Shown here: positions 11,601-64,000 of the stretch, piece after piece | Layout: every line of letters starts with the position of its first letter | How positions within the stretch are numbered: position 1 is the stretch's first letter | Source: a virus | Reading direction: 5' to 3' (one strand) | Virus record (IMG/VR): IMGVR_UViG_3300025530_000001 | Span: 1 to 64,000 of that record | Length of the DNA stretch: 64,000 nucleotides | Made by a program: the position numbers and the translations under genes | Notes under the pieces: generated by a model | Told to the model about the DNA's origin: nothing | What the model saw: only the letters and a program-made list of their open reading frames with translations | Database searches by the model: none

Positions 11601-12419
11601 TTCCCGGTTCACATACCAGAAGCCTTCACGAAGAATTCGATTACGTGCTTCGATCTGTGCCAGAATTGCAGGATCATTCTCCTTGCCTTCCGGGATCTCA
11701 ATGTTCAGATCCACATAATGGACATGATCCATGATATCCACGACCCGCTCCACAATGATGTCTTTGCCCTTCGACTTGCGACGGAATGCGACAGTGACAT
11801 CACGTTGCGCTGCGAGTGTGTCGGAAAGCGCAGATTGAGATTGCGTGCGGTACGCTGTGTTCTTACCGGTATAGCCATAGTCTCCATAAATCAGAGACGA
11901 CTCAAACCGATCAGCTGCCTCGTTGAACTTGATGTTCTTCAAGGAGCCTGCAGCGACCAGCACCATGTTGCGCTTTGGACGCTGAAGCTTACGAGCAACC
12001 TTGTTGGTCAAGAGGAATTCCTCGAACCAATGAGCTTGCGCCGGATGAATGCCTGCATATTCCACAGGATTATGCAAGATATCCGAGATCGAGATACCTT
12101 CAGCGCATGCAGCCACTACCTTCTTGAAGTTGGTAGTGTTCTCATGGATACCTGGTGCTTTGCGGAGTTCTCGGATGATCGCCTGGTAAGTACGCAGCTC
12201 CTCGCCAGTCATGCGATCCAAACGCTTGGCTTCTTCGTAACGAGCAATTGCTGCACGAGTTGCCTTCTTCAGACCACGTTGGATTTCACGACGACGACGT
12301 GCTTCCTCACGAGCGATAGCGTATTTGATGAACGCTTCCTCGTTCTCCATGCAGAAGACTGGTACTTCATGACGTTGAGACTTGGACTCCAGAGTTTTAG
12401 CAAGTGTCTTATTATTCAT
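8646..12419 (-). CDS. single-chain two-barrel RNA polymerase candidate (YonO / eukaryotic-type RdRP-like)
   Basis: 1,257 aa with GGGAGG RBS 10 nt upstream of ATG 12417-12419. Motifs: FFLQTASQSR (11547-11576), AGDGLIF, WQIRLTPFAKGLMVFVP (11064-11096 core), VLARNPAITNGEARLV (about 10347-10394), GGADNDGD (DNDGD at 10224-10238). Confidence 0.7.
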   Translation of the reverse strand: MNNKTLAKTLESKSQRHEVPVFCMENEEAFIKYAIAREEARRRREIQRGLKKATRAAIARYEEAKRLDRMTGEELRTYQAIIRELRKAPGIHENTTNFKKVVAACAEGISISDILHNPVEYAGIHPAQAHWFEEFLLTNKVARKLQRPKRNMVLVAAGSLKNIKFNEAADRFESSLIYGDYGYTGKNTAYRTQSQSALSDTLAAQRDVTVAFRRKSKGKDIIVERVVDIMDHVHYVDLNIEIPEGKENDPAILAQIEARNRILREGFWYVNRETGELRHAVFFLQTASQSRLLQAVFLDEEFMSVPEAFAALGMDLLAFAKRKVVHGQSVWVLDITKYLKRIGLAGTSTVPSETISFGKEYRNTAHGYRIEGGLYTIEVIEDAFAMVNSGKYKAFDKDTGSFHTFDASEVPLKLPAGDGLIFCDEEIYQALLAEFGEDSDAWQIRLTPFAKGLMVFVPGLRKYYDANIVVTKSAMKGDLRTICHKFDTQLRIALFNKSMAQTKEKTILPYQFSHILPLSYDVLKGIVEKNLNSLLADLDDPVALAKRAGVAALNDMSGLDEDEKEYLLKKSIVTTFGAFLYAGRGENAFVHKDAMMQQWAIELLRQEVNKWVNSTIPVDGHYRFMVQDPYAILEAHRIGMRNEDGELIVPANIGMRANEVFLLDRSLKPMVDRKVVLARNPAITNGEARLVDCVAPSNYVAATRMHAFRNLCVMSVHDYNTYAMGGADNDGDTCLTITEEAIVTAAQSKSYIPVLDLYFERKDDGSIRSFETGCPYPMNKSGEADKFEFGADCVSASDYTVVFRDDQYTEELVQAIHEYSIEYVILTMNPNKIGFMTNKATQLANAIRKIRQMIDESIDEHGKPCKWTPNQLAMLKHEMVKYQEYIDLLRLVQGWEIDRAKHGGAYEEQLAAKLEFISNPPYFASYFDEKSGKRKWRTPQFLASRKGKHGVSTHSTLDKLHNFIKDWVKENLDPRIADLQAKANGLSIEDGKMKHSFYEQANILGELTAAISIDPATFELIEQRVKAIRGEYIDAVTEISDLENERKKWVMQNLPEHMHAEKFEEIEELRRAEWSDILEYFQGQATALEAAYRPEHIGYVAYYVTYTQNRKPELNEDGEVTRLRGLSLPWTVFKRQLLEAVALASGNAESTVNPYQFERGAFTMAFALENGRNGEKLAAYINEHKEIIVKAEISPRTRNTLYNVYVPVNGREVLTGWALYTALPFVAGHKQLRAIVDSCSFNGKHTVTVKVTDVQAI

Positions 12420-13562: not shown

Positions 13563-13567
13563 GAAAG

Positions 13568-31930: not shown

Positions 31931-31967
31931 TCCTCTCCGATAATCAGAATCTGATTCAAATTCAACC

Positions 31968-31993: not shown

Positions 31994-32021
31994 TATCTAA
32001 ATAATAGGAGGTATTGGGAAA

Positions 32022-32528: not shown

Positions 32529-32551
32529 TAGCTGAAAAGGCAGGGATCGCT

Positions 32552-34564: not shown

Positions 34565-34572
34565 ATTTTCCA

Positions 34573-36645: not shown

Positions 36646-36665
36646 GAATGGGGAGGTAATCGGCG

Positions 36666-46969: not shown

Positions 46970-46982
46970 TGAGATCTGGCAG

Positions 46983-47011
46983 AAAAGGCAGCTCACAAGG
47001 CTGCCTTTTTT
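46983..47011 (+). terminator. rho-independent terminator
   Basis: AAAAGGCAGC-tcacaag-GCTGCCTTTTTT. Confidence 0.7.
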
Positions 47012-47033
47012 ACATAAGAGAGGAGGAAGGCTT

Positions 47034-47525
47034 ATGGTTTATCAGAATCCGACTGATCCTGGCTATCATCATACATTTACCACATATTCAGGAGCCGATA
47101 TGGTTGCAACAATCAATGTTCCTGGAAAGGGTCCTGTTGTGTTTGGCAGCTTGTCTTCGATTGCCTACTCCATTTACCGTGCCAAATATCCCGTTCTTAC
47201 GCTTGGTCGTATCACACCGAAGGGATTCACCAGAGGGATTCGGCAAATTACCGGGGTCATGAGATTCATCGATTTTGATGAAACGATCGTTTATCGCTGT
47301 CTTGAAGAGATCAAGAACATGGGATACAAGATGCTCATGGATGAAATGCCAATGTTTGATGTCACCATCAGCATGGCCAATGAATTTGGCTCAAAAAGCA
47401 AAATCACCATCTATGGCATCACCACCTACACAGAAGGCAAAACCATGGATATCAATGAAGTGCGAACTGAAAATGTTTATGAGTTCTATGCGCTTGATGT
47501 CGATCCACTAACCAAGGCAAAGTGA
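47034..47525 (+). CDS. tube-family paralog 2
   Basis: 163 aa from ATG 47034 (GAGGAGGAAGG RBS). YSGADMVATINVPGKG motif. Confidence 0.6.
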   Translation: MVYQNPTDPGYHHTFTTYSGADMVATINVPGKGPVVFGSLSSIAYSIYRAKYPVLTLGRITPKGFTRGIRQITGVMRFIDFDETIVYRCLEEIKNMGYKMLMDEMPMFDVTISMANEFGSKSKITIYGITTYTEGKTMDINEVRTENVYEFYALDVDPLTKAK

Positions 47526-47535: not shown

Positions 47536-48318
47536 ATGGCCTACAATCCGTATCGCATACGGCAGCCGGCACCGGTGGGAAACGTTTATCAACGCCCGAC
47601 TAATCGAGTGGAATATCAAATCTTCAGTGAAGATTACTTCTCGGGAGCTGACGTAAACATCTTCTTCGGAAATATTTGGGTGGATGAAGCACACGAATTG
47701 AGCTTTCAAATTGAAGAGCGCATTATGCCGATTTATGGATATAATTCATTCACATTTGATGCAGTTGCTCGGGGAAACCGGCTTGTACAAGGATACTTCA
47801 AGATTAATTTCAAATCGGTCGGTTATCTGAAGACCATTCTTGAAAATGCTATGGCTATTGAATACACCATTTTGAAGGCGCAGAGCGAAGGAAAACTGTC
47901 TCCGGCAGATTTCAATAAATATAAGCTTGAAGACATCTTGCAAATCGCAGGTAAATCAGGATTTGACCAAATCGCAGATGAATATGAAAAAGCTCTTTGG
48001 GGTGTAGAAGAAGACGCAAATTCCATTCTTTCATATGGGACCAGCACTTTCTTTCCATCCAGCCAATATGGGTTTGATATCAAGATCAACTATGGGGCGG
48101 TTTCTGAGGCCATGTCAACTTCACAGCGATATATCACAGCAAGCAAATACAATCAAAAGCCGAACCTGACAGTAGAGACAATCAATGGTGTTCAGCTATT
48201 TGGTATGAAAAAAGATGGCATTGCGACAGGAGAAGACGGAAGGCCGATCACAGAAACCTATAGCTTTATCGCCCGAGATATAAATGGGCCTTTATATATT
48301 CAGCAAAACCGTATATAA
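47536..48318 (+). CDS. tube-family paralog 3 (tube initiator/baseplate-tube candidate)
   Basis: 260 aa with GAGGGG RBS. FSGADVNIFFGNIWVDE motif. Confidence 0.6.
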   Translation: MAYNPYRIRQPAPVGNVYQRPTNRVEYQIFSEDYFSGADVNIFFGNIWVDEAHELSFQIEERIMPIYGYNSFTFDAVARGNRLVQGYFKINFKSVGYLKTILENAMAIEYTILKAQSEGKLSPADFNKYKLEDILQIAGKSGFDQIADEYEKALWGVEEDANSILSYGTSTFFPSSQYGFDIKINYGAVSEAMSTSQRYITASKYNQKPNLTVETINGVQLFGMKKDGIATGEDGRPITETYSFIARDINGPLYIQQNRI

Positions 48319-49664: not shown

Positions 49665-52600
49665 ATGCCGGAAATGGAGAATGAATATTCTAGCTATCTG
49701 GATATGGATTCGAGGCCGATGTCTCGTTATCTTCGTTCCGATCGTGAGCGAGATGAGGATGCTCCACTTCTTCGTAAGATGATGGTAGGAACAGGAATTG
49801 CTGCAGGTGCGCTGGCTGTGGCCTATCGCACCGGTGGCATGCGCAAATTGGCTGGAGCCATCGAAGTGTATGGAAAAGGAATTGCACAAGCAGCAAAAGA
49901 GACGATGGACCAGGAGTCAGGTGGCCATCTTTTTCGTCTTTTTGGACATGCTGTTTCTGCACCGGCTGGTCGCAGGCTCTTTAACAAGGAGTTTGTTGAG
50001 CGAGCCAAACGTTCGATCGAGCAGAGAAAACGGGCTGTAGCCCAGTTTGGGGCCAATCGTGAATATGACATGCAACGTCTGATTCGACAATTGAATCGGA
50101 TGGTAGACAAGAAGGTTCCTTATCACATTGAAGAAGGAATCCGATTCAATCTGGTTATCGACGAGTTGCGAAAGAGCCATCACTTTTCGGAAGAGCAGGT
50201 CAATCAGGTTGCTCGTGCCTTTTTGAAGGCCAATCAGGAATCTAAGGGAAGCTTTTCACTGAAATATACTCACGATCGAGAAATCATTTTCCATCTCAAC
50301 AATGCCGGCATTGCTGATAAAGACACGGTTGAGAAGATCCTGGCAGCTCGCAAGAAGCATCGGATTATCCAAGATGAAAAAGCGCTTCAGGATATGAAGG
50401 AGCGCATCTCTCGTATGCAAGAGAGATTGACACGTCAAGCTTACAACGAGATGCAAGAGATGACTAGGAAGGATGGTTTCTTAAAGAGAGCAATCCGTGG
50501 CCACAGGCAAGCAACTGTGCAAGATGTGCTTGATATGCATCACGCTGGGCGCATTAAGCTTGATGAAGAAACCTACAAATCTTTGAACCGGATTATTCGT
50601 CAAAACCAGAAGTTTGGCGATGCGATATTCGATGAGCAACTGTATGTTAAGACACGAAATGGAAAAGCACATGATCTGATCGATTATAAGATCTTCAATG
50701 AAATGAAGTGGAAGATGGTGGACTATTGGGCAACCTCGTTGCCTGGTGGTCTGCTCCACCTGCGGGATTTTCTTAACATTCGGGAAGCCAGACTGAAATC
50801 GCCATTTGACATCATTGGTCGGGGATCTATTCAGCCAGGATTAAATGCGCAAATGGGCATTGCCAACAACGAGATGCTCAAAAGCGAAGTCGTCTATGTG
50901 AATGGCCGGTTTTATAACCTTTTTGATGGCGGGACAAGAGATACACCTCTTGAGCCTCTCAACAAAGGAAGACGAATGTATGGGATCTCCTCTCAGTTTG
51001 GCACCATCGGAAAGATCATGCAGCATACCAGCGGCATTGTTACTGGTGTCAAGGAGAATCAAAACTGGTTTGCTCGGACATTTGATCTCGGCAACCAAAG
51101 CAAAGAGTCGGGATTCCGATCTGTCTTATCCGGCATTACGAAATTCGGTAATCCAGAGTGGGGAAGAAATCTGATCTATGACGCCTTGAATCATGGCGTT
51201 GATTATGATGATTTCTTCAAAATCAAGAATTACTTTGAACGCTACACCAAAGGATTCAGCCCCAGAGTTCTAAATAACATTACGGATCATTTGCCGACGC
51301 ATTTGAGGCGTTTTATCCAGGACAATGAAATCAACTTCAGCCGGGAAGAAGACATGCTGAAGCTGTTTGAGTATTTAGCCAATCCGGATATGATGGTCAA
51401 TATCAATGGCGTAATGCAAAAGAACATCGCAGCCAACGGGGCATCCGAGGATCTGAAAAGGCTCTGGCGACAATATGAACGTGACAAGTATGAGTTCATG
51501 GCGAAGAAGCAGCCTGTTGGTGAAGCCAGCCTGCTTGGATTCGGAGAATACACGAACATCCAAACCAGCATGGATCAAGTGCGTCAGCAAATGGGTTTGG
51601 AAATCCTGCGTCAGATTTCAGAAGCCAACATGATGCACGGATCCACTCCGGTGTCATTCAAAGGCATCTTGAAAGACCTCCGGGAAGCCGGCAAAATCTC
51701 ATTGGAAGATATGCGTCAAGCAGAAGATCTGTATGCGCATTACCAATTCATGTCGTCAGGAAGGCACATCTACAGCAGCACTGATATCGCATTGGCTCAG
51801 ATCAATGGGTTGTTCAGAGGAACATCGGAACGGTCTCGGGAATTCCAGGAGCAGATTCAACGAATGGTGAGAAAGACCAATCCGATCTTCCAGCGTTTTT
51901 CTGGCATCCGACCTGTGAACCAGGTTGGGGATGATCTGATCTATGTCAATGAAGCCTTTGAAAATGGCTTCTTCCAGCAATTCACGTCGTTCAGAGGCGT
52001 TGCAGATCTGTTTAGGCAAGCCTTTGCCGGCAGACGGAACATGGAAGACTTCACAACATTGACGGCATATAACATGTATATTCCGTTCCGTCTGCAGGAT
52101 GCTTTAGGCAATGTGGGGCTTGGATTCTCCGATAGATCAATGGGGAACGCAGCCCAAATCTGGAGTTCGCTTCTGTTGAAACGCTTCTTGCCAGCGGTGG
52201 CCATTCCTACTTACGCTGAATACATCGATGACAAGACTGATCAATATTTCGGCACCAGCATCTCCGAGCGGTGGGAAATTTATAAGGCAACTCGTGAGTT
52301 AAGGCTTGCCGCAGAGCGGGATCCGAGCGACATTTACGGCATTTTGACTAATGCCAAAACATCTGATGAGCTGAAGCGGGAAATGTCGCTTCGTCCGGGG
52401 ATTGAACACTTTGGTGCCGGGCCTGAGCTTTATCTTCCGGGCATAGGCAAAGTAGGCGTTCTGAGAACCATTGGAAAGCTTCTGGGCGGAGGCGCACCGG
52501 TAGATGAAAAGGACACGTACACGGTTGAGGAGCTGCAGGATTACTACGCATATGGTGTGGATGAGGTGCGCCAGGGCCGCTGGTGGTTGTTTGGTTCCAA

Positions 52601-55600
52601 GAGTGCCTATCGTGGCGATCGCATCATCGAATTCCGTCCTAACTCCTATCGTTTGGCGCTTAGCGACTGGGAATATACGAGTGTCACCTCGACCATGCAA
52701 GAGCGCTGGGAACATACCTTGTTTCCGACGTTTGAGAACTGGTTCGGATTGAAGAATCTGATCCGAAGCAGAGAGGATCTCTACTGGTGGGAAATCAAGC
52801 ACTACTATGATCGTCCTTACTTGCTGACCGGCTCCATGTTCAATCCAAATACGCCATTCATCGGCGACATCGGCAATGCGACAATCGGGCAAATTTTCAA
52901 GCCGATCCGTCAAATGCATCCGGAATATTGGGGTGATCCGGTGCTCATGCAAGAGCAGGCGGATCAGTATGGGGCTCGTCCGACTGAGCCGATTATGACA
53001 AAAATCTCTCCTGCCGGGCGCATGGAGCATGTGGTTCCAGCAACGGTGCAAGATTATGGATCATCTATATTTCCGACGATTCCGGTCACTGGTGATCCAT
53101 ACGCAGTGACGCAAATCCGAAGCCTTGCACAAAGTGCAGGAATGCGCATGCCTCAATACTTTGTGACCAGGAATTTGAGCACAGACGGCTATTATACAGG
53201 AGACTTTGTGCTGCAAAAAACCAGGTCTGGCCAGGCCGTGTATGTTCCTGCAGATATTGGAGCAGCAGGATTCACGCCTGAGCAGCTGTTCGAAATGGGA
53301 GCTCCTGCTTCGCCATATATTGAAACCAAGCCGAGAGGATTGATGGAGCAGGAATATCCATATCGAAGTGAATTCAAATATCAAAAGCTCCTCAATCTGC
53401 AGGATCCACGAGATTTAAATTATCAGGCCAAGCAGTTCTTCGACAACGTTCGTGAAACACTCGGTATTTATAACTGGATTGGAGAAGAACTGACTGGATC
53501 TAAGCCTGAAAACAGAATGATCATTCAAAAAGCAGACTATGCGAACAACTTGTCGAACACCTTCTGGGAATCAAATCTCGGCTCGCTTGGCGGCGATTTT
53601 TCAGAAATCATGCGCCGTTTCCTTCGGAGAGATGACGGAAAGCAAGAACAATACAACCCGATCCGGAACACCATGCCTGATTGGCTGCCAGGCGGCAATT
53701 ACTTCATCAACTTCCAGGTGGGTGATCCGTACTCCAAGATTCCTCATGGCGAATATCGTCTTCCAGGTGAAGCTTATGAGCGATTGAATTATCTCCACCC
53801 GGACGAAACAGGCAGATATGGCGCATTCGATAAGTTTAAGATACTGGCAGATGTAGCGCCATGGAGCGAAGAGTATAAATTCTGGAAGGAATATGTCGAG
53901 GAAAACATTACGGATCCTGAGTTGAGGAAGCAAATTGCTGTAATCAAGGATCAAGTCGCTAGACGAAAAAGGAAATATGAGTTTACTCCATACCGTTTTG
54001 CAGATGCAGAAATCGAAAAACAGAAGGTTACTGTTACCAAGTTCCTGGACGATTACACCTTCTTGACAAAAGAATTTGGCGACACACCAATCCGCCTGGC
54101 AGGCATGCAGTATCAGGCCAATGCAGAGGGAGTGCTGCAAAGCTATATCAGTGTAGGAGATCGTATTACCATTGGCATCGATCCCAATCCGGCCAGACGG
54201 ATTTCGGATGACACTTACGGCACCATCCGGGCAGTTGTTTACCGAAACAACACGAATATTAACAGAGACATCCTGGAGCGGGGGCTGATGAAGGAGAACA
54301 AGAATGATTTCTCTGCAGTCGGTGTTCATGCTAGGTATACGCCTTCTGAGATCCGGTCCGGCGCTCGGTGGGAAAGACTAGCGCACGCAGATACGCCATT
54401 CAACACCAAGTTCCTTCCGGTTCGCACGGCACTCGAAGAGTACGAGCGGGATCAAATATATGGGAAGGACTGGGCGACCTGGGAAGGCTTCCTCATGAAA
54501 GACTATGGAATTCCGATTTACCATAGTGCCATCAAAGATAACCCCATTATGGCCGGCGCACAAATCGCCGGATGGGCCACAGTCTTGGCTTATCTGTTTT
54601 TGCCAAGAGGAAAAAGCGGACGCCATCACTGGTATTGGGGTTTAGCGGGGTTTGCAGCTGGTGCAGGAGGCAGCCTCTGGAGAATGGGCTATGAAGCTTC
54701 GACCGGAGAGGCTTGGATTCCTGAAAGGCGCCGTATCGAACATGACATCAATGAATACTTCGACATCCTGAAATACATGAAGTATACCGGACTCTACGAG
54801 CGAGCCAAAGAAGAGCTGCTTCAGCAAGGCATCGACATCGAAGCCATAGAGACCGAGCGAGAGCTCAAAGAGCAAATGACCAAGGAGCGTCGCAAGGAAC
54901 TTGAAGCAGAGCGAAGAAGGTTGTTTATTGAGCAGCCAGCAGGTTGGGAAGAGCGAAGGAGAGAGATCAATCAGGAGCTCAAGATTATCTCACAAAACAA
55001 GGATGAGCTTTTTCTCCCTGAAGCGGTTCTGCAAGCATTAAGTTATAAGGAAAAAGCAGAAACCACCTTGTATGCAGTAGATCCGTTTGGCGATCGCATG
55101 AAAGTCATGCAGGCCATGCCGCACAAGGATCGATGGTTCTTCAATGAATTTGCCAATGCAGAGGATTATGAAAAGGAACGTATCCTGGAGCTGGTGGCAC
55201 CTAATCAACGCCGCATATACAAGGCTCTGTGGGGCGGTGAGCTTGAGCCTCAAATCCCGCTGGAGGAATATTTCAAAAACCGATACTTGCCAGGCCCGGA
55301 TTGGATTGGATGGCGACCAGAAGTCAATCTGGATGACATTATGGTTAAAGCCGTTCAGGAATACGATCTTGACCTGAATGATTTCAACTTCTGGGATGAA
55401 GACGTGGCAGCCGGGCAGCTGGCGCCTGATCTGAATGAAGAAGGAAACGGCATATATGGATTCTCCGGATATAAGGATATGCGGAAAAACATTCGGGAGA
55501 TTCTGGAAGGGAAAGGTCTTCGGGACGTGTCGGTTACAGTTACACCATCAAGTAGTCAAGGCGCACGCATCGTAATGAATTACCAAGAAGATCGTAGTCG

Positions 55601-55646
55601 GGAGATCGACAACTACTTGCGGTACAATATGGAATACTTGATGTAG
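49665..55646 (+). CDS. giant tail-module protein (tape-measure candidate) with TM segments and an SNase-like OB-fold segment
   Basis: 1,993 aa with AAGGAG RBS. Follows the chaperone pair. TM-like stretches MMVGTGIAAGALAVAY, IMAGAQIAGWATVLAYLFL and WGLAGFAAGAGGSLW. SNase-like segment at 54027-54306. Confidence 0.6.
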   Translation: MPEMENEYSSYLDMDSRPMSRYLRSDRERDEDAPLLRKMMVGTGIAAGALAVAYRTGGMRKLAGAIEVYGKGIAQAAKETMDQESGGHLFRLFGHAVSAPAGRRLFNKEFVERAKRSIEQRKRAVAQFGANREYDMQRLIRQLNRMVDKKVPYHIEEGIRFNLVIDELRKSHHFSEEQVNQVARAFLKANQESKGSFSLKYTHDREIIFHLNNAGIADKDTVEKILAARKKHRIIQDEKALQDMKERISRMQERLTRQAYNEMQEMTRKDGFLKRAIRGHRQATVQDVLDMHHAGRIKLDEETYKSLNRIIRQNQKFGDAIFDEQLYVKTRNGKAHDLIDYKIFNEMKWKMVDYWATSLPGGLLHLRDFLNIREARLKSPFDIIGRGSIQPGLNAQMGIANNEMLKSEVVYVNGRFYNLFDGGTRDTPLEPLNKGRRMYGISSQFGTIGKIMQHTSGIVTGVKENQNWFARTFDLGNQSKESGFRSVLSGITKFGNPEWGRNLIYDALNHGVDYDDFFKIKNYFERYTKGFSPRVLNNITDHLPTHLRRFIQDNEINFSREEDMLKLFEYLANPDMMVNINGVMQKNIAANGASEDLKRLWRQYERDKYEFMAKKQPVGEASLLGFGEYTNIQTSMDQVRQQMGLEILRQISEANMMHGSTPVSFKGILKDLREAGKISLEDMRQAEDLYAHYQFMSSGRHIYSSTDIALAQINGLFRGTSERSREFQEQIQRMVRKTNPIFQRFSGIRPVNQVGDDLIYVNEAFENGFFQQFTSFRGVADLFRQAFAGRRNMEDFTTLTAYNMYIPFRLQDALGNVGLGFSDRSMGNAAQIWSSLLLKRFLPAVAIPTYAEYIDDKTDQYFGTSISERWEIYKATRELRLAAERDPSDIYGILTNAKTSDELKREMSLRPGIEHFGAGPELYLPGIGKVGVLRTIGKLLGGGAPVDEKDTYTVEELQDYYAYGVDEVRQGRWWLFGSKSAYRGDRIIEFRPNSYRLALSDWEYTSVTSTMQERWEHTLFPTFENWFGLKNLIRSREDLYWWEIKHYYDRPYLLTGSMFNPNTPFIGDIGNATIGQIFKPIRQMHPEYWGDPVLMQEQADQYGARPTEPIMTKISPAGRMEHVVPATVQDYGSSIFPTIPVTGDPYAVTQIRSLAQSAGMRMPQYFVTRNLSTDGYYTGDFVLQKTRSGQAVYVPADIGAAGFTPEQLFEMGAPASPYIETKPRGLMEQEYPYRSEFKYQKLLNLQDPRDLNYQAKQFFDNVRETLGIYNWIGEELTGSKPENRMIIQKADYANNLSNTFWESNLGSLGGDFSEIMRRFLRRDDGKQEQYNPIRNTMPDWLPGGNYFINFQVGDPYSKIPHGEYRLPGEAYERLNYLHPDETGRYGAFDKFKILADVAPWSEEYKFWKEYVEENITDPELRKQIAVIKDQVARRKRKYEFTPYRFADAEIEKQKVTVTKFLDDYTFLTKEFGDTPIRLAGMQYQANAEGVLQSYISVGDRITIGIDPNPARRISDDTYGTIRAVVYRNNTNINRDILERGLMKENKNDFSAVGVHARYTPSEIRSGARWERLAHADTPFNTKFLPVRTALEEYERDQIYGKDWATWEGFLMKDYGIPIYHSAIKDNPIMAGAQIAGWATVLAYLFLPRGKSGRHHWYWGLAGFAAGAGGSLWRMGYEASTGEAWIPERRRIEHDINEYFDILKYMKYTGLYERAKEELLQQGIDIEAIETERELKEQMTKERRKELEAERRRLFIEQPAGWEERRREINQELKIISQNKDELFLPEAVLQALSYKEKAETTLYAVDPFGDRMKVMQAMPHKDRWFFNEFANAEDYEKERILELVAPNQRRIYKALWGGELEPQIPLEEYFKNRYLPGPDWIGWRPEVNLDDIMVKAVQEYDLDLNDFNFWDEDVAAGQLAPDLNEEGNGIYGFSGYKDMRKNIREILEGKGLRDVSVTVTPSSSQGARIVMNYQEDRSREIDNYLRYNMEYLM

Positions 55647-55659: not shown

Positions 55660-58600
55660 ATGGCTGATCATGAATTGAATGCTAACCGGGCCATTAATGG
55701 AAATGCTGAATCAGAAAGCCGAGCGGCTGGAAAGAAGAAAAAGAAGGTAACCATAAGACAAAAAATCGAATCACTCTTGGGCGCCGGCGTGCAGTCGGCA
55801 CCCGTTCCTCCATCCAAACAGTTTGAGCTGGTATCAACCTTTGGCGTGTTGAATCGAGCGCCATTTGAAAAGGATCCAGATCGCTTGAATAAACTCCAGC
55901 CGACGATCAACCTGATTCATAAAGCGATGGCAGATGCAGAAGCGTTTCGCAACAAAGGAACCATCAAGTCGCAAGGATCTGTGATTTTCACCAACTTCAA
56001 CAGCCCTCACCAAATGGGAGGACAAAAGGAAATTGAAACACTCTTAAGGTTTGAGAGAACCAAGCAGAAAAACATATTCGCTTATGACGTTGAAACTTTT
56101 GGAGACATCAAAACAGGCGATGGCTTTCACATCGTGGAGATTGCATTTCAAGAACTGGAACGCACAAATAAAGATGCCTTTCGCTCCACGAACAATCGTC
56201 AGAGCCTGCTGATCAAGCCGACTGAATCTGCCCAGAAATACCTGAGACAACTTATCCGTCGATTTGAGGCTGACCCATATATCTTCAATACATTGGATAG
56301 TGCAGCACAGGTTTCTCTTGTTAACTTGATGCGATATTCAACGATCGGCGGAGAAGGAATCAGTGTTGCCAATCTGGATGAAGCCAATCTTTCTCACAAC
56401 TCAATCATCAACAGCGTGTATCGCAAGGTAGACAACTACATTAACGCGGAAAAACTGCTTACTCATAAAGATCTCTATCTTAAGCACATCAAGTCAGGCT
56501 TCCAAAACCTGATCAGCCTGGGAGAAAGGCATAGTGTTTCGAATGCCTTAGAGCGTCTCAGAAACTTCTATAATCCCATCGCTGATCAATACTTTGTTTC
56601 ATACAATGGCGTTGGCTTTGACATCAAAGCTTTCGAGTTGTTTGGAGCCAAAAACAATACGAAAATCGATTTGCCGCAGAAGCATATTGACTGGTATCGC
56701 TTGCTCACAACTGCATATCCAAGCTCCGGATATTTTCACTATAAAGTGCTTGGCAGACAGAATGGGCTTGGATTTGAGCAAGGCGCCTGGACCCTGAACG
56801 AAATGCGCAGGAGCTTGGGCATGGATACAAGCGAAGCCCACCTTGCAATGGCAGACGTTGACGACCGTGGCCTTGGTGGAGTATTTTCTGCAACGCATCG
56901 CAAAGTGTATAACGAAATCCTGAAGGCCAAACGAAGAGAGAAAAAATTGCAGAAAAGTGGCTCCTTGAATCGGCCGCCAGTTTTCACCTGGTCAAATAAT
57001 AGTGCCTTGAAAATTGGGCAAACCCTATTTTCACCATCTGGTGTCATGATTCATGGTGGCGGTGAATATGATTTTCAGGCCAGAATTGACGAAAATGGAA
57101 ATTTGACTGTTCTCAATCCGGAGTTCCAGAAAACGGTTTTGAATGCAAGAACCTTTTACAAGGTTGATGCCTTTATGGAGCTTAAGGACAATGCGGGGAA
57201 TATCATTGGCCACACATTGAGGTTATATGATGAGGATAACGATATATATACGTATATCAACCGCTACGGTCATTCCTCCATGGCTGACATCCAGACATAC
57301 GTTCAACAGAACCTCTATAACTGGGATGGCATCTCAAAGCAAGAGAGACTGGCAATTCGTGAAGAGCGTACTAGAGACAGGGCTCGCCGTGATTATGAGC
57401 GCCTGACCTCGCTGGCCGGCGCCGGAGCTGGTAAAACATATGGTTTTGAGGCTGCGAAACGGGCCTATGCAAATGTTGAAGTTTACGAGAAGCGGGTCAA
57501 GGGCGGCAAGAGAAAATACATTGAGCAAAGAGCCGCTGAACTCATGGAGGAAGAAGCTGAACGATTGGGCGTCACTGATCCAAAAGAACGTGAAGTCATC
57601 AGGCAGAAATATATTGGACAGTTGATGGCGAATCGAATAAGTCATGAAGAAATGCTCAAGGCCATGGATTTCAACAGCCAGGCTGTATATAAGAACGGAG
57701 TCTTCAAAGGATGGACAATTAAGCCAGAAGAGCAAGAATCGTTCTTCAGAATGGCACCGCGTTTGATGTCAGAACGGGAACGATTTCAGGAAGCTATGAA
57801 GATTATCGAGGAGCATTTCCCCATCGAGAGCATGAGTGGAGCTGAATTGGAGAAGGCTAAGCAGCGCCGCGACATGGCATTTCGCATTTACGCTCGCAGT
57901 GTGGATGGCGTGCTTGGAAGACACGTTGAAGAACATGCGCTTAAGGAATATGAGCGACATGGATACACCTTCATGTTCGATGGCAGGCAGCGAAGAATCA
58001 ATTTCCTCTCATTGGATAAAGCAGAGAAAAGTATCTGGTCAATTGTAAGGGAGGCGCCTGAAGGAGATCCACAGTTCCAGGTTCACCGCCTGTATCAATT
58101 GATCAATGCGTTGCAGGAGTCAGGGGCATTCAACAGAAAAATGGCCAACAGACTTATCAATAACATGTCCAATTTCAGTAGAGTCGGCGACATGGTGCAG
58201 AAGCTGGCATTAGAAATGATGAATAATGCCAATTATCTACAGGACACTGTTGTAATCAATTCCTTGAAGCCGAGGGATATGACCAGACTCACTGCAGACC
58301 TGAACATGGAACTGGCCAGAGCTGCCATTCAGAAAGTGCTTAATGCTGAGGGCAAGGTGCTTCCTGGTGGGATCGTCAAACTCGCACCAGAAATCGAGCA
58401 ACGTATTCAAGCGATTGAACCGGTGGATCATATTTCGGGGCTTAAAGCCAATAACCGGGATGCGATCGCTACGGTCATTAACGCTATACACAACACCCGC
58501 TATAACCTTCAGTATGAGCTGGCTCTGAACAAAGATCCAAATGCACCAGTGGCCAGGATTGTCGTGTTTCGACCTGAGCACTCAACGAGTGTAACAGAGG

Positions 58601-61600
58601 CTATTGAGTCCGGAAGGAAACATCCAAGGGCTGTTGAGATTGATCTTCCACTTATCAATTCGGAGGGCTACCAAATCTATGGCAAGCGAAACCTGATCGG
58701 CCACAGTGTTGCCATCCGAGAAAATGGAATGACCAAACTCATCTCAACTGCACAAATGGTTGGCATGCAATATGCCTATAACATAGAAAAGATCTTGAGC
58801 CCAATCATTGGCGAGGATCCGGACTATGAGCTGGCCAATTATCGAAGCAAAAGGTTCCTTGATGATGTACTGAAAAATGTAGCTGCTTCGTCAGACAATC
58901 CTCATGAGTTCAATGATGCTTTTGAAGCAAAAGGAGTTCTGAGTGACTTCGACAAGATGACTCATGTACGCTTGGCTCCTGCTTATATTCACGACATGAT
59001 TAAAGATATGACTCTTAAAGAACAGGAAGCCTTTCTGACTGACGATGCGTTCTATTGGACGCATGAAGATGGCCGAGCCACGAAAAAGGTAAAAACCTTC
59101 CTGACCATGGATCATGTGCGCAAAGATAGATTCAATATGTTAATGGGTATCATTGACTGGGCAAATTCGACAGAGTGGGAAGGAGAGAAGCCGGAGCTTT
59201 TTTTCAATGCTATCAAAGAGAACAATGCTGCAAGGGCGATTCTCTCCACACAAGACTTGGCAGAGAAGACCTTGTATGGTCGATTCATCAATCTGGCCCG
59301 TCCGAATATGATCCAGAGAAGAAATTTCTACAGCATCACAGAAGATGTCGCCCAAAAGTTGTCTCAAGTCAATGGATATGTGAACTTGGATCCAATTGTC
59401 GAAACGGAGTCCAATTGGAAGTTTCTTGATAAATACATGGCCAATACAAAAGAATATTCAGGCGTCAATGTGATGGTTGCCTATATGGATCCTGAAGAAG
59501 TCTATCGAAGAACAATGGCCATGATGAATGACGCGGAGGGACGAGAAATCCTCCGAGAAGAGGGAATTCTGGTTACCCGAAATGGCCAGGAAGTTATTGA
59601 TCCGGTTCGTCTCAAATCAACCTATGAAAACCTGTCAATTATTCAAAAAGATCTGATGAATGCTCTGGCATTCACTGATTCCAAGCGGTTTGACAAAGGA
59701 GAAGGCACATTCCAATGGCACAAAAAGTTTGTCTCCGATGCATCAAAACTCTACGGAGATTTTGCGGCGGATGGCACTGTAATGGAAGGTGCTATTGTGA
59801 AACCGGGAGATGTGATTGGCAGAAAATACGAAGATGGAGTATGGAAAGAGATCGTCTATGAAGAGAAGATAGAAGGCAGATTAAAAGGGACTGCCAATCA
59901 AATCTTTCAGGTGGAATATACGGATACGAACCCATTCAAGTTTTCGTTCGGCGGCGAGAAGGGTACTGACTTCAATGCAGCTGGTAAACGTTTTATGCAG
60001 CGATTGACTGGCAGTGATCAAGTTGTGGCCGTCATTGCACCAGACCCTGGCAAACGTAAATTCTACGGGATGCTCATGGAAGGTCAGGCAAAAATGATCT
60101 TGGATGAGCTGAATAGGCGAGGACAAGAAGCACGAGCTCAACTCGTAGAACAGCTCCAATTGAATCGTATTGGTATCATGCTTGAAAACGGCAGATTCGT
60201 GGATCGGAGTTATCTCATGGACAGTATTGATGTTGAAGCCTTCCATGAAATTGCTGATCAGCTCGGCGTTAAGTTTAAGACAGATGCTGATGTTCATGTG
60301 GGGATTTTGGAGATGCGCCTCATGCGCAATCCAAGATACTTCAAGACAGTGGACGAGACAGGGAGAGCGATCATCGGACGTGATGAAGCGGGCAATAAGA
60401 TTTATGCTCGTGGCGAACGTGATGGCGTTGCTTATGGTCACCGTGAGATGAATGTGCTTGAGCGCATTGGCGCAACTAAGACTTATGAGCATGTATTCAA
60501 TGAAATGCGCAGGCAAGGGCTAGAGACAGGCAAATGGGTTGATGCCCTCAACACTGACTATGCGATTATGGCACTGGCCGGCGATCCTGCAACTGAATCT
60601 TATAAAGATCGTGTAGTGAAGTCATATGACTTTAACCTCATGCCGGAGGTTGACCTGGATGACTTCACCATTAAGGGCACAATCCTGGATCATGAAGCCG
60701 TAGCTAGGCAACTGGGTGTTAGCACGGATGAGCTCGGGAAGTTTTTCTGGCTCGACTTGAATACTGAGGTTGACGTGGAGCTGGAAGGCAAGGGGAAAGG
60801 CACCACCAAGATCAGTCGTATTCCTGTGCCTGTCCTGAATCATTATTATGATGAGTCTGGCAAGATTCGATTGAGAGATTCACAGCAACTTATCGCCAAT
60901 ATCAATAACAGCCTGAAAATGAAGGCTCGTTCTGTTGGCAAAGGAGAAAGAGGTCCGAAGGGTCCAGATTATTGGGACAGACGGATCGCAGCTGATGTAA
61001 AGAATTATCTTGATCAATTAGTGATGGATGCCACCTCGTCAAAGGGGTTGTCGGGCGAAGGCGCCTTAAAGGTCAGACTCGGGACATCTGCTTCCGGCCT
61101 AATGAAAACCATAGATCCATTTGCTTCGCAGCACGTCGGAGATGAAGTCACCTGGATCTCGGTGCAGCAGGCAAAAGATATGGGCATCTATGAAAAGCTC
61201 ATCGGCGAAAACAACATCGGCACAGCCATGGAAGAAGAAATTCTGAATGACTGGACAAGGCAGCAGTATAAATACGCCGAAGTTACCCGCTTCCCGACAA
61301 AGAGTATCCATGCCAAGCAGTACACCCGTATAGTGATCGATCCGGGTCTGACAACAGGCAACATTGCCACTACTGCTTTCTCCGTGCTCAAGCTGGAGGG
61401 TGACAATGACGGTGACGAAAGCCATGTTGTGGTAATCGACAAAGACGAAGTTCAAAAAGAGTGGAAGCGTCTGGCGAACGAGCGTAAGGTGTACTATTCC
61501 GATGGTCAAGATTGGAAAGTGTTCCAGAATCAATGGGCAGCCGAACTCGCTGAAAAGAAAACGGAATTCGATCTGAAAGAGCTTGCCAAACGTGATTTCG

Positions 61601-62688
61601 GCAGCACTGTCGTTCAAGCGTTTGAACCCAATAGCGATTTCGAGCGGGCAAGTAAGCTGGATAAAACACAGGTTGGTAAAATCTCGAACCTGAATAGAGC
61701 CTTGCAGGATTACGCTGCTTATGTGTTCGGTCATGACTCCAAAGAATATCGCATCTTCTCCGAGTTCGGCAGTGAACTGGAACAGGTGGGGATCGACTCT
61801 GCGAAGGCCGGCGTTAATTATATCCCAGGGCAGCCGCATATTGCGGCCAAGTTCAGAAATGCTTTGCTCAGATATGACTGGAACACGGTTCGTGAAGTTG
61901 CGGATATCTACGGCGAAAAGATGGACAGAAACCTTCTTGAAGAGGTTATTTACTTACTGGATAAAACCAAGGGGTTAGGTGTTGGACTGAATGACCCTGC
62001 TTTTTCGGTTGGTTCCAGTACAGGTGTAAACCTTGCGGAACATGGCATTAAAGGTGTCTATGATGTCTTACACACAAGTCAAGTAAATTCTGTTCAATTC
62101 ACTCGATTGAAGCGACGCATGCTTCGAGATACACTTGGCGATGAAGTGCCAGCTCCGGAACCAGAAGTGAGAGGTGTTTACAAGGAGTCCATTCTGGATG
62201 CCTATGAAACCTTGGCCTCAGAACCCAAACCGCGTCGTCCATCTGCAGCAGAACAAATCTTGAATGATGCAACAGGCGGGTGGATTCCCGATGACATCTT
62301 CAGCGGCGAAAAAGGCCCACGAAATCAGCGTATAGCCTTGTTTGCAGGTCTAGCTTTAGCTGGCGTAATGGGTTACAATGTTCTTAGTAATACTTCGGCA
62401 CCGATTGCTCCCGCAGCTCCTCCGCCGCCTCCCGCAGGATCGGTAGGGCCTGTAGTTCCACAGCCGGCTCTTCCGCCTGTTCAGTATACTGCTCCGGCAA
62501 TGGGGGCCAAAATCGCAATCACGGCAAAAGGCGAGGGGTCGCAAAGAAGCAATATGCCCCCGTGGATTCAGGAAGGCATGCGAAGAAGCGGATTCCAGGG
62601 ACAAATGAATATGACTGTGAACTATTCAGATAACACCAGAAACCTTTCAAGGATCTGGTATCGAGATAAGGTCGAAGAATACATCTAG
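55660..62688 (+). CDS. giant multidomain protein: DEDDh 3'-5' exonuclease plus DxDGD two-barrel polymerase-like core plus C-terminal TM/Pro-rich region
   Basis: 2,342 aa from ATG 55660 (AGGAG 10 nt upstream). ExoI FAYDVETFG (D/E at 56086-56094), ExoII SYNGVGFD, ExoIII HLAMAD (56839-56856). VTRFPTKSIHAKQY...LEGDNDGDESHVVV (61282-61440; DNDGD at 61402-61416). Confidence 0.65.
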   Translation: MADHELNANRAINGNAESESRAAGKKKKKVTIRQKIESLLGAGVQSAPVPPSKQFELVSTFGVLNRAPFEKDPDRLNKLQPTINLIHKAMADAEAFRNKGTIKSQGSVIFTNFNSPHQMGGQKEIETLLRFERTKQKNIFAYDVETFGDIKTGDGFHIVEIAFQELERTNKDAFRSTNNRQSLLIKPTESAQKYLRQLIRRFEADPYIFNTLDSAAQVSLVNLMRYSTIGGEGISVANLDEANLSHNSIINSVYRKVDNYINAEKLLTHKDLYLKHIKSGFQNLISLGERHSVSNALERLRNFYNPIADQYFVSYNGVGFDIKAFELFGAKNNTKIDLPQKHIDWYRLLTTAYPSSGYFHYKVLGRQNGLGFEQGAWTLNEMRRSLGMDTSEAHLAMADVDDRGLGGVFSATHRKVYNEILKAKRREKKLQKSGSLNRPPVFTWSNNSALKIGQTLFSPSGVMIHGGGEYDFQARIDENGNLTVLNPEFQKTVLNARTFYKVDAFMELKDNAGNIIGHTLRLYDEDNDIYTYINRYGHSSMADIQTYVQQNLYNWDGISKQERLAIREERTRDRARRDYERLTSLAGAGAGKTYGFEAAKRAYANVEVYEKRVKGGKRKYIEQRAAELMEEEAERLGVTDPKEREVIRQKYIGQLMANRISHEEMLKAMDFNSQAVYKNGVFKGWTIKPEEQESFFRMAPRLMSERERFQEAMKIIEEHFPIESMSGAELEKAKQRRDMAFRIYARSVDGVLGRHVEEHALKEYERHGYTFMFDGRQRRINFLSLDKAEKSIWSIVREAPEGDPQFQVHRLYQLINALQESGAFNRKMANRLINNMSNFSRVGDMVQKLALEMMNNANYLQDTVVINSLKPRDMTRLTADLNMELARAAIQKVLNAEGKVLPGGIVKLAPEIEQRIQAIEPVDHISGLKANNRDAIATVINAIHNTRYNLQYELALNKDPNAPVARIVVFRPEHSTSVTEAIESGRKHPRAVEIDLPLINSEGYQIYGKRNLIGHSVAIRENGMTKLISTAQMVGMQYAYNIEKILSPIIGEDPDYELANYRSKRFLDDVLKNVAASSDNPHEFNDAFEAKGVLSDFDKMTHVRLAPAYIHDMIKDMTLKEQEAFLTDDAFYWTHEDGRATKKVKTFLTMDHVRKDRFNMLMGIIDWANSTEWEGEKPELFFNAIKENNAARAILSTQDLAEKTLYGRFINLARPNMIQRRNFYSITEDVAQKLSQVNGYVNLDPIVETESNWKFLDKYMANTKEYSGVNVMVAYMDPEEVYRRTMAMMNDAEGREILREEGILVTRNGQEVIDPVRLKSTYENLSIIQKDLMNALAFTDSKRFDKGEGTFQWHKKFVSDASKLYGDFAADGTVMEGAIVKPGDVIGRKYEDGVWKEIVYEEKIEGRLKGTANQIFQVEYTDTNPFKFSFGGEKGTDFNAAGKRFMQRLTGSDQVVAVIAPDPGKRKFYGMLMEGQAKMILDELNRRGQEARAQLVEQLQLNRIGIMLENGRFVDRSYLMDSIDVEAFHEIADQLGVKFKTDADVHVGILEMRLMRNPRYFKTVDETGRAIIGRDEAGNKIYARGERDGVAYGHREMNVLERIGATKTYEHVFNEMRRQGLETGKWVDALNTDYAIMALAGDPATESYKDRVVKSYDFNLMPEVDLDDFTIKGTILDHEAVARQLGVSTDELGKFFWLDLNTEVDVELEGKGKGTTKISRIPVPVLNHYYDESGKIRLRDSQQLIANINNSLKMKARSVGKGERGPKGPDYWDRRIAADVKNYLDQLVMDATSSKGLSGEGALKVRLGTSASGLMKTIDPFASQHVGDEVTWISVQQAKDMGIYEKLIGENNIGTAMEEEILNDWTRQQYKYAEVTRFPTKSIHAKQYTRIVIDPGLTTGNIATTAFSVLKLEGDNDGDESHVVVIDKDEVQKEWKRLANERKVYYSDGQDWKVFQNQWAAELAEKKTEFDLKELAKRDFGSTVVQAFEPNSDFERASKLDKTQVGKISNLNRALQDYAAYVFGHDSKEYRIFSEFGSELEQVGIDSAKAGVNYIPGQPHIAAKFRNALLRYDWNTVREVADIYGEKMDRNLLEEVIYLLDKTKGLGVGLNDPAFSVGSSTGVNLAEHGIKGVYDVLHTSQVNSVQFTRLKRRMLRDTLGDEVPAPEPEVRGVYKESILDAYETLASEPKPRRPSAAEQILNDATGGWIPDDIFSGEKGPRNQRIALFAGLALAGVMGYNVLSNTSAPIAPAAPPPPPAGSVGPVVPQPALPPVQYTAPAMGAKIAITAKGEGSQRSNMPPWIQEGMRRSGFQGQMNMTVNYSDNTRNLSRIWYRDKVEEYI

Positions 62689-62700
62689 GAGGTGTACTCA

Positions 62701-64000
62701 TGGCAGCTGGCCTTGGATATGATGATCGAGACCCCCTGCTCGGGAGTCTCAAACCCCATCATTTGCGCATCGGTGATGCGCAGTTTTTCGTTCCTCCTAC
62801 GGCGATTACCGTGACCAGGCGAATGAAAAATGAAACCATAAACATGATCAGAAGCCGAGGGAGCTTCATCAAAAACAGCGGATACTTTGATCTCATTATC
62901 GATATCGACTTGTTCTTCCCGGATAAACAATCGATCAACAATGAATTGAGGCCGCTGCTTGCTCAGGTCAAGAAATGCCCGTTTTTGCCAATTGAGAATG
63001 CGCACCTGAATGAAGTGTACGATATTCAAGCTGTAACGATCGCCGGCATCACTGTGTCTTCTGTAGAAGGATTCCCAAATTCTCTTATAGCAAGTTTACA
63101 GCTTTATGCGTTCAATCCGAATGTCTACATCTTCAATGAAAACGACAAAAGCTTTGATGAGATGTTCAATTGGCCGTTGTTTCGATGGTATTATCGAAGA
63201 AATCTGCAGCCAAGCAACGGCAGATTTACGTACTTCGAGCCCATGCTTCAGGAGCTGGGGAGTGAATTTACATTCCGAACCGCATTCGAAGGTGATTTGC
63301 AAGCACTTCGGGAATGGCGCATCCAGCGAGACAAGATCATCAGAGATTGGACGAAAGACAAAGCCAATAAAAGCGGTTTTGATATCGTCTATGAGTTATT
63401 TAACGGAACTCCATCTCTGCTGCCTGACGAAATTGACGAAGACCTTTTTAATGCCAAAATTGATGAGCATTACAAAAAAGCAATATTTGAATATGACATC
63501 ACGATGGAAGACTGGATCTTCGATGACCTGGTGCTTGAAGATATCAGCGTATCGTTTCAGAATGTGATTACATCGTTTCAGTTGCAGGAACATGAATCGC
63601 CAGCGCATCAATATCTAGGATCTCAAGACACCATCATTACCTGTCGGTTCAGGACGCACGATCGTGAGACGCTGGCCAACTTCGAGGGGATGATACGACG
63701 GGCCAATTATCTGGTTCGTGAGTATCACAAGGAAATCTCGAACGGGTTCCTGGAGTTTGACCACCCGCTTCTGCGATTGTTTGGTGTCAAATATGTAGTG
63801 GTGGATGACGTGGAATCCAAAACCGTGGAAGGTTTGCCTGGCGTATTCGATATTACCCTCTCACTGATTGCATACAACCGGGCACAGAAAAAATTCACGG
63901 AAACAAAACTGCTTAGTGGTGAAGCTGCTTGGGATATTAACGAGTATCAAGATGCCAGCCTGCTTGTTGCTCAGCCTATTCAATGGTTATTGGACAGGCC
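62701..64000 (+). CDS. tail/baseplate-module protein, 5' part (open to window end)
   Basis: ATG 62701 with AGGAGGTG 5 nt upstream. Frame open for at least 433 codons to position 64000 (MAAGLGYDDRDPLLGSLKPHHLRIGDAQFFVPP...). Absent from the ORF track because it lacks a stop. Confidence 0.6.

Follow-up and report, generated by a model that had tools for sequence, protein, structure and literature searches.

The stretch of DNA analyzed here (the window) comprises 64,000 nucleotides, positions 1 to 64,000 of IMG/VR virus record IMGVR_UViG_3300025530_000001, and the gene under study, located in its tail module, encodes a protein of 2,342 amino acids (aa), P0001, referred to below as the giant. Its open reading frame (ORF) is uninterrupted from the ATG at 55660 to the stop at 62688; an in-frame GTG is found at 55651, and the start at 55660 is the one chosen by the gene callers in three public assemblies, in which a protein identical to the giant was called on a metagenomic contig of ~197 kb. 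The giant is confirmed as a real, conserved gene. The features recognized within it are listed below, each with the evidence on which it rests.

55660..62688, + strand: whole gene of the 2,342-aa giant P0001, in the tape-measure position of the tail module (ORF; gene order kept in relatives)
56050..56919, + strand: DEDDh (RNase T/DnaQ-like) 3'-5' exonuclease domain, residues ~131-420 (AlphaFold 2 [AF2] model, Foldseek, Pfam on relatives, profile)
56086..56094, + strand: Exo I, catalytic D143-x-E145 (37/38 members)
56605..56622, + strand: Exo II, N316-x4-D321 (37/38 members)
56839..56856, + strand: Exo III, H394-x4-D399, the 'h' of DEDDh (37/38 members)
56920..59787, + strand: middle region, residues ~421-1376, no domain assigned (searches, family conservation)
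59788..60069, + strand: candidate beta-like double-psi beta-barrel (DPBB-B), residues ~1377-1470, with PGDVIGRK and K1427/K1434 (nucleotides 59938-59961) (AF2 strands, invariance)
61267..61434, + strand: beta'-like catalytic barrel (DPBB-A), residues ~1870-1925 (Foldseek, profile, PF00623 in family member P0020, invariance)
61288..61296, + strand: R1877-F-P1879 (38/38 members)
61402..61416, + strand: Mg-binding D1915-N-D-G-D1919 (38/38 members)
61636..61728, + strand: candidate bridge helix, residues 1993-2023, with invariant G2006 (proposed from AF2 secondary structure and invariance)
62329..62388, + strand: predicted transmembrane (TM) helix, residues ~2224-2243 (sequence; kept in the family and in gp146 of Bacillus phage 0305phi8-36)
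62401..62685, + strand: proline-rich tract and C-terminal tail, ..NMTVNYSDNT..L.R.WYRDKVEE.. (family hidden Markov model [HMM])

An initial annotation, made from the letters alone, had read the giant as a fusion of a DEDDh exonuclease with a barrel resembling that of the RNA polymerase (RNAP) beta' subunit. All of the motif strings that it quoted are present where it placed them: FAYDVETFG at residues 141-149, SYNGVGFD at 314-321, EAHLAMADVDD at 392-402, VTRFPTKSIHAKQY beginning at residue 1875, LEGDNDGDESHVVV beginning at residue 1912, IALFAGLALAGVMGY at 2225-2239, and the proline tract at 2248-2273. Likewise, the codons that it had singled out for mutagenesis, 56086-56094 and 61402-61416, do encode D143-E145 and D1915-D1919, respectively. 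Its candidate for the first barrel, FMQRLTGSDQVVAVIAPDP, was slightly misplaced, as the true signature, PFK(1427)FSFGGEK(1434)GTD with its two invariant lysines, lies a short way upstream.

For the polymerase core (residues 1290-2170), an AF2 model built on a 38-sequence alignment reached a predicted local distance difference test score (pLDDT) of 87.5 and a predicted template-modeling score (pTM) of 0.86. When this model was compared with the Protein Data Bank (PDB) by means of Foldseek, 546 matches were obtained at E≤1e-3, the best 50 of which were all RNAP beta', archaeal Rpo1, or phage AR9 beta'-like chains, with the top match at an E value of 5e-8 and a probability of 1.0. Against BFVD, where the matches extended over the whole core, other giant phage proteins took the lead (A0A7R7G2L5, E 2.6e-20, TM-score 0.57), with a "minor tail protein" of an uncultured siphovirus (E 1.3e-16) and a protein of Acinetobacter jumbo phage ME3 also being found; these were followed by RNAP subunits of giant viruses and jumbo phages and then by crAss-like proteins, including a weak match to phi14:2 gp66 (S0A2C3_2, E 1.3e-3). 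At the sequence level, a 20-member family profile searched against PDB sequences retrieved Pol V NRPE1 (E 6e-5), Rpo1N (E 2.7e-3), and bacterial beta' (E 3.3e-3), as well as African swine fever virus and eukaryotic Rpb1 and the phiKZ RNAP, and in every match to the barrel, the family pattern vRyPtfh...raDsDGD was aligned in register with NRPPTTH...SADFDGD. Significant PDB sequence matches were given only by this 20-sequence profile; single-sequence queries and a three-sequence polymerase profile were blank against the same sequences. The Pfam model RNA_pol_Rpb1_2 (PF00623) was matched below threshold in 2 of 20 family members, and the match in member P0020 spans exactly RFPT(2142)...DSDGD(2180). 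The giant also passes the filter [RK]xP-x(20-100)-DxDxD applied by Chaban et al. in their survey of two-barrel RNAPs (PMC10770324), with R1877-F-P1879 located 35 residues upstream of the D1915 motif. The beta'-type double-psi barrel that the initial annotation had placed around residues 1870-1930 was, in other words, recovered by both Foldseek and the family profile. A reading of DNDGD as a calcium-binding DxDxDG loop was considered as well and was excluded by the upstream RxP, by the register-exact alignment to the RNAP active site, and by the fold match.

The region of the first barrel lies ~450 residues upstream of the catalytic barrel, where the model contains six strands (model residues 96-148), a segment bearing PGDVIGRK and the invariant K1427/K1434 within PFKFSFGGEKGTD. 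Since the beta-type barrel contributes two basic residues to the RNAP active site (PMC7824862), the modeled K1427/K1434 segment is likely to represent this barrel. Downstream of the catalytic barrel, the 31-residue candidate bridge helix is followed by a predicted helix (residues 2028-2050) with the invariant K2049, as judged from the AF2 model and the alignment.

The exonuclease domain was modeled from three sequences, with moderate confidence (pLDDT 58, pTM 0.59). The order of its elements, beta1-beta2-beta3-alpha-beta4-alpha-beta5-alpha, is the one expected for the fold, with a helical insert of ~100 residues separating Exo I from Exo II, and Foldseek placed RNase T in ~30 top positions (E 2e-4, probability 1.0), with TREX1/2, Orn, and exonuclease I ranking next. 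The RNase T-like fold, which had been predicted for residues 140-410, was accordingly found by both the model and the structure search. While the giant itself gave no Pfam match, its exonuclease domain scoring below every Pfam threshold, Pfam searches on 20 relatives detected RNase_H_2 in 8 (best E 1.3e-6), RNase_T in 3 (best E 9.7e-8), and a PolB-type exonuclease model in 3. Similarly, a three-sequence exonuclease profile found nothing among PDB sequences, and a word-indexed homologue search with the exonuclease alignment found nothing either, whereas the 20-sequence family profile matched PolB exonuclease domains (E 2.6e-4) among PDB sequences and, with its Exo II segment, small DEDDh exonucleases, DnaQ, and the exonuclease of T7 DNA polymerase (DNAP). 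In a single judgment covering both assignments, we consider it very likely that residues ~130-420 of the giant constitute a DEDDh exonuclease and that residues ~1377-2100 constitute a single-chain two-barrel RNA polymerase core.

In order to define the family, 1.84 billion cluster representatives were searched exhaustively by HMMER, using a profile that covers residues 1290-2170. The search yielded 45 proteins, nearly all of them 2,100 to 2,730 aa long and 29 of them at E<1e-30; ~40 clusters at 50% identity were found among these representatives. In a conservation alignment of 38 full-length members, 16.6 to 42% identical to the query, K1427, K1434, T1436, K1465, E1596, R1877, P1879, D1915, D1917, G1918, D1919, and G2006 are invariant (38/38), and the exonuclease residues D143, E145, N316, D321, H394, and D399 are kept in 37 of the 38 members, the single exception being a shorter member that lacks the N-terminal domain. 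That both sets of residues are kept at such low identity points to purifying selection on two catalytic centers. All motifs are also retained in two close homologues (41 to 43% identity over 99% of the length), carried by a Paenibacillus rhizovicinus "plasmid" (CP048288; 228.8 kb) and by a 70-kb viral contig. As a single query, the giant gave nothing in Pfam, PHROGs, or, using phmmer, the PDB; tblastn against 50,697 GenBank phage records produced no match, and nothing was found in a scan of GTDB representative genomes. It is this blank result of single-sequence searches that has left the gene unannotated, and proteins of the family are currently labeled "hypothetical" or "ribonuclease H-like," as in the case of the Bacillus thuringiensis CP097261 homologue, named "ribonuclease H-like domain-containing protein" by PGAP. 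Our finding corrects the annotation of these proteins.

One more distant homologue deserves separate mention. Plasmid pG9842_140 of Bacillus cereus G9842 encodes a 1,777-aa protein (8713-14046) in the same tail position, with no other giant encoded between the chaperone-like genes and the hub. This protein resembles our giant over the N-terminal ~1,000 residues (E 2e-162), while Exo I (replaced by FNFEI) and Exo III, the first barrel in its entirety, and the RxP and DxDGD motifs have been lost; judging from these residues, the protein is a catalytically dead relic. The middle region, well conserved throughout the family, is conserved even in this protein. Since the dead copy keeps the scaffold, the scaffold would serve a purpose other than catalysis, in keeping with a structural tail protein, and the loss of both catalytic centers together is consistent with one shared pathway. 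Taken further, the same observation might suggest that the giant itself serves purely as a structural tape measure and that its enzyme-like domains are relics devoid of activity; gp146 of 0305phi8-36 likewise has no DxDxD motif. Relics, however, would not be expected to keep the catalytic residues of both centers in 37 to 38 of 38 members at 16.6 to 42% identity, and we find this explanation hardly credible.

A further question is what the polymerase makes. The giant could synthesize DNA or primers, with the DEDDh domain acting as a proofreader as in a PolD-like enzyme, and so fill in, repair, or prime the incoming genome. A polymerase covalently joined to a 3'-5' exonuclease is a hallmark DNA polymerase design, the exonuclease profile matches the proofreading domains of PolB, T7 DNAP, and DnaQ, and both centers are missing from the pG9842_140 protein. 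Moreover, archaeal PolD, in which, as in the giant, a two-barrel core is paired with a 3'-5' exonuclease, is recognized as a DNA polymerase of the two-barrel class (PMC7281927). On the other hand, the best 50 structural matches in the PDB and every profile match to the barrel segment are RNA polymerases, PolD is not among the structural or profile matches listed for the giant, the exonuclease lies ~1,000 residues away from the polymerase core, unlike proofreading modules, and the nearest functional precedents, gp96 and gp66 (see below), are RNAPs. In addition, R1877 of the RxP motif aligns with a beta' arginine (R425 in Escherichia coli) that contacts the ribose 2'-OH. The exonuclease of PolD is a Mre11-like phosphodiesterase on a separate subunit rather than a DEDDh enzyme. 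DNA synthesis by the giant is, in our estimation, improbable, and RNA is the product that we infer for the polymerase.

The position of the giant in the genome bears on whether the protein would be part of the virion. The relevant structural genes of the window are as follows.

22310: terminase
25790: portal
30845: major head protein
41732-42766: sheath paralogue, 344 aa
43397-46168: sheath paralogue, 923 aa
46241-46969, 46830-47525, and 47536-48318: tube-like paralogues
48330 and 48831: two small chaperone-like genes
49665..55646, + strand: upstream 1,993-aa giant, homologue of 0305phi8-36 gp145 (BLASTP, E 1e-106)
62700..64000, + strand: downstream 2,078-aa baseplate hub/cell-wall hydrolase, of which only the start lies within the window (phrog_20474, E 1.8e-124)

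By sheath protein, the nearest sequenced phages are Moorella phage MTATph1 and Bacillus phage 0305phi8-36. The duplications of sheath and tube genes mirror those of 0305phi8-36; the PHROGs label "major head protein" on the tube paralogues is a misannotation stemming from the RefSeq record of that phage. The placement of the giant in a tail module, as originally proposed, was upheld, but both of its neighbors had to be renamed: the upstream 1,993-aa gene, thought to resemble a tape measure, is a gp145 homologue, and the downstream one, described as baseplate-like, is a hub that on the full contig is 2,078 aa long, contains a Glucosaminidase domain (PF01832), and shares its PHROG match with the gp147 hub/endolysin of 0305phi8-36. 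With a gp145 homologue upstream and a gp147-type hub downstream, the giant stands where gp146 does in 0305phi8-36. In the record of that phage, gp145 and the putative tape measure gp146 are both annotated as virion proteins by mass spectrometry; the tape-measure role of gp146 was assigned by Hardies et al. mainly from tail length (PMC2147016). The giant is encoded after the tube and chaperone-like genes and before the hub, with one gp145-like giant intervening, and members down to 17% identity have the same succession of sheath, tube paralogues, a pair of chaperone-like genes, gp145 homologue, giant, and giant hub with peptidoglycan hydrolase; around one such member, the trio of giant, family member, and giant hub (with glucosaminidase or M23 peptidase) is maintained.

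Besides its position and similar size, the giant has its C-terminal module in common with gp146 (E 1e-14), in which the TM helix, the Pro-rich tract, and the terminal D-x-T..L-N-R-x-W motif were detected, along with an exonuclease-like DIET segment. The same module is found in MTATph1 CDS0031 (E 3e-12) and in the pG9842_140 protein (E 8.5e-29). In MTATph1, the gene at the gp146 position (30512-37868) is interrupted by a transposase (CDS0028); the family HMM located the exonuclease domain in CDS0027 and the C-terminal module in CDS0031, no DxDxD motif was found in the gene pieces, and a direct BLASTP comparison of the giant with this positional homologue was not significant. On the basis of synteny and of the C-terminal module in common with gp146, by analogy with that phage, it is fairly probable that the giant is packaged in the virion and ejected into the cell.

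Alternatively, the giant might be an intracellular, nonvirion enzyme that happens to be encoded within the tail block, with the upstream 1,993-aa protein as the true tape measure. Much of the giant is indeed a globular enzyme, and the upstream gp145 homologue has hydrophobic segments and corresponds to a verified virion protein in 0305phi8-36. This alternative nevertheless has to account for a position between gp145-like protein and hub that is kept down to 17% identity, for a TM/Pro-rich/WYRDKV module common with the virion protein gp146, for the dead pG9842_140 copy, which, as the sole giant there, points to a structural role, and for the presence in the same genome of a free-standing RNAP already available for intracellular transcription. 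We judge it unlikely.

Some features of the giant have precedents. The closest is gp96 of Thermus phage P23-45, a virion two-barrel RNAP fused to a tape measure (Chaban et al. 2024, PMC10770324). Like the giant, gp96 occupies the tape-measure slot and contains a single-chain two-barrel RNAP with [RK]xP...DxDGD N-terminal to membrane segments; both genomes encode a second, nonvirion two-barrel RNAP, the gene of which was shown experimentally to be transcribed by gp96 in P23-45 (PMC10770324), and the role proposed here for the giant, pre-early transcription coupled to DNA entry, would be gp96-like. The core of gp96 is clamp-less and flat. The two systems differ in that P23-45 is a siphovirus with the RNAP at the extreme N terminus of a 5,002-aa protein that also has a metallopeptidase, whereas the giant belongs to a contractile tail, has its RNAP at residues ~1377-2100 and a DEDDh domain at the N terminus, and leaves the cell-wall hydrolase to the next gene. 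Assuming that our copy of the PDB includes it, gp96 was absent from the PDB matches listed for the single-, 3-, and 20-sequence searches.

A second precedent is the virion-packaged RNAP gp66 of crAss-like phage phi14:2 (Drobysheva et al., bioRxiv 10.1101/2020.03.07.982082), which is, like the giant, a single-chain two-barrel protein of ~2,200 aa encoded among giant structural genes, the virion association of the giant being presumed. It differs in having DFDID rather than DxDGD, a podovirus-like virion, a cleft-blocking domain, and no exonuclease, and no sequence similarity was found between it and the giant. With the enzymes of the YonO/QDE-1 (PF05183) type, the giant has in common that its likely beta-like barrel and its beta'-like barrel are on one chain, in this order, and that no flap-type inserts of the sandwich-barrel hybrid motif (SBHM) type were recognized; it differs from them in its lack of a PF05183 match. 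As for the exonuclease, the giant agrees with RNase T, Orn, TREX, and DnaQ in the D-E-D-H-D set, the order of strands and helices, and the fold, and differs in the ~100-residue helical insert and in being embedded in a 260-kDa protein. In summary, by its motifs and fold the giant can be placed in the two-barrel superfamily, with the beta-like barrel as a candidate, and among the DEDDh exonucleases, whereas the searches made did not place it in the gp96 family, in PF05183, or in any curated model. The initial claim of novelty holds in part: in the light of gp96 and gp66, tail-encoded polymerases of the two-barrel superfamily are not new, while the exonuclease fusion still looks new. A search of the full-text literature turned up no description of a two-barrel or virion RNAP fused to an exonuclease, the word "exonuclease" is absent from the text-form supplementary files of Chaban et al. 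(PMC10770324), and the family of the giant and its conserved exonuclease fusion appear to be undescribed.

The second polymerase of the element, together with other features of the window that bear on its lifestyle and early region, is given below.

8646..12419, - strand: YonO/QDE-1-type two-barrel RNA polymerase, 1,257 aa, candidate nonvirion RNAP (RNPAIT...ADNDGD, PF05183)
18695-19900, + strand: actin-like ParM/ALP partition protein (Pfam ALP_N, E 5e-21; phrog_691)
18211-18299, + strand: tRNA-Ser, anticodon TGA, with exact TGTAATGCATTACA copies on either side (18079 and 18452)
1962, 2162, 3390, 14470, 15345, 18079, 18452, 25746, 26101, and 48326: copies of the TGTAATGCATTACA palindrome
16475-16894, + strand: Tad2-like protein of the early region, candidate counter-defense or signaling function (PF11195)
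1426-2028, - strand: YspA/SLOG-family (YAcAr) protein of the early region, candidate counter-defense or signaling function (E 5.6e-16)

The 8646-12419 polymerase matches the Pfam family of RNA-dependent RNA polymerases (RdRPs), PF05183, at an E value of 4.6e-13 (49.2 bits, cutoff 23.8), while no such match was obtained for the giant or 20 of its relatives. A polymerase of this YonO/QDE-1 type is also present in 0305phi8-36, as orf99 (PMC2147016; PMC7824862). A 902-aa ORF on the plus strand (9969-12677) was dismissed as a shadow of the minus-strand polymerase gene. When the core of the giant was compared by hhalign with the coresident RdRP-type polymerase and its family, only RxP...DxDGD was aligned, at a nonsignificant E value of 0.07 (single comparison), so that we do not claim the two polymerases to be close paralogues.

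By tblastn against PLSDB, a full-length giant was found on eight nonmobilizable "plasmids" of 200 to 260 kb from cultured Bacillus and Paenibacillus, all eight of which also carry the RdRP-type gene, and the Paenibacillus record CP048288 is listed in IMG/VR as a viral genome. Cultured carriers of the giant include Bacillus licheniformis (~205-kb plasmids; CP014843, CP021670, and CP035189), Bacillus paralicheniformis (AP025341), Bacillus halotolerans (CP114067), B. thuringiensis (CP097261), P. rhizovicinus (CP048288), and Paenibacillus urinalis (CP118109). Like the partition protein, these plasmid-deposited relatives point to a phage-plasmid lifestyle, and the description that suits the element best is that of a jumbo phage-plasmid equipped with two two-barrel polymerases. 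Its JGI (197,400 bp), ENA (197,328 bp), and Logan (143,169 bp) assemblies do not share a starting point, which is consistent with a circular or a circularly permuted, terminally redundant genome and leaves its physical ends undefined. The 14-bp perfect palindrome TGTAATGCATTACA occurs in 10 copies in the window (≤2 mismatches), with 0.19 expected. The copies are mostly intergenic, and several adjoin TATAAT-like boxes, as is the case immediately ahead of the genes at 25790 and 48330; the palindrome looks like an operator of a phage regulator or a 5' hairpin of transcripts.

Putting these observations together, we lean, with modest confidence, toward the view that the giant is a tail-internal virion protein with two enzymes that starts phage transcription upon its ejection. 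The protein would be assembled into the tail with its C-terminal module beside the giant hub, would be expelled by contraction of the sheath, and would be anchored at the cytoplasmic membrane by its TM helix. Its polymerase could then transcribe pre-early genes from the entering DNA independently of the host RNAP, and these genes may include that of the 8646-12419 polymerase, the product of which would take over. As to the exonuclease, gp66 and QDE-1 transcribe single-stranded DNA (ssDNA) far better than duplex DNA in vitro (bioRxiv 10.1101/2020.03.07.982082), a preference that motivates the proposal that the exonuclease makes the template. We speculate that its substrate is the DNA terminus entering the cell, where removal of the 3'-ended strand would expose a single-stranded template; the exposed strand would be the template of genes pointing toward the entering end, and an ssDNA-preferring polymerase could transcribe it without promoter melting or host factors. 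That exonuclease and polymerase form one such coupled entry machine or, as a variant, a two-barrel polymerase with a proofreader, a type otherwise restricted to archaeal PolD, is an attractive but doubtful extension of the scheme.

It is also conceivable that the giant is ejected mainly for the sake of its exonuclease, as an effector that degrades host or defense nucleic acids or oligonucleotide signals at the site of entry, with the polymerase pulling DNA in by transcription or producing decoy RNA. The closest exonuclease folds, RNase T, Orn, and TREX, have short 3' ends and oligonucleotides as their substrates; the early region contains genes of the counter-defense type, such as the Tad2-like one; and RNAP-driven internalization of the genome was raised for this lineage by Hardies et al. 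(PMC2147016). However, no defense-related family was matched, PADLOC not being among the searches, and the strict co-conservation and co-loss of both centers argue for one pathway, which led us to consider an effector of this kind unlikely.

Several points weigh against the ejected-transcriptase scheme that we prefer. With regard to the enzyme, no beta-subunit chain was present among the best 50 of the 546 PDB matches to support DPBB-B, the bridge helix and trigger loop remain candidate assignments from the model, and sequence does not settle RNA versus DNA synthesis. With regard to the virion, gp146 shares only the C-terminal module and a weak exonuclease segment, the latter at around residue 1200 instead of ~140; it is without any DxDxD motif or detectable polymerase core. 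At least ~1,300 of the 2,342 residues of the giant are predicted to form a compact globular enzyme, a poor fit to an extended tape measure, and passage through the tail tube would require this bulk to unfold. With regard to template and timing, the exonuclease-makes-template idea is conjecture, particularly as the permuted assemblies leave the genome ends undefined, and TATAAT-like boxes upstream of some early-region genes suggest that the host RNAP may suffice for part of early transcription.

If delivered as we propose, the giant would represent a third family of virion two-barrel RNAPs, unrelated in sequence to the two demonstrated by experiment, in crAss-like phages and in P23-45, and located in a new host group and tail type, namely contractile-tailed jumbo phage-plasmids of Bacillus and Paenibacillus, some carriers of which are cultured strains, making experiments feasible. 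It also brings a new combination of domains, since a strictly co-conserved 3'-5' exonuclease has been described for no RNA polymerase of the superfamily in the literature searched. The dead copy on pG9842_140 and the polymerase-less gp146 suggest that enzyme modules are gained and lost on a conserved tail-protein scaffold. Should both activities prove to cooperate at the entering end, this would explain where ssDNA-preferring polymerases obtain their template in vivo, and a coupled entry machine of this kind would start infection in a mode not described for any virus.

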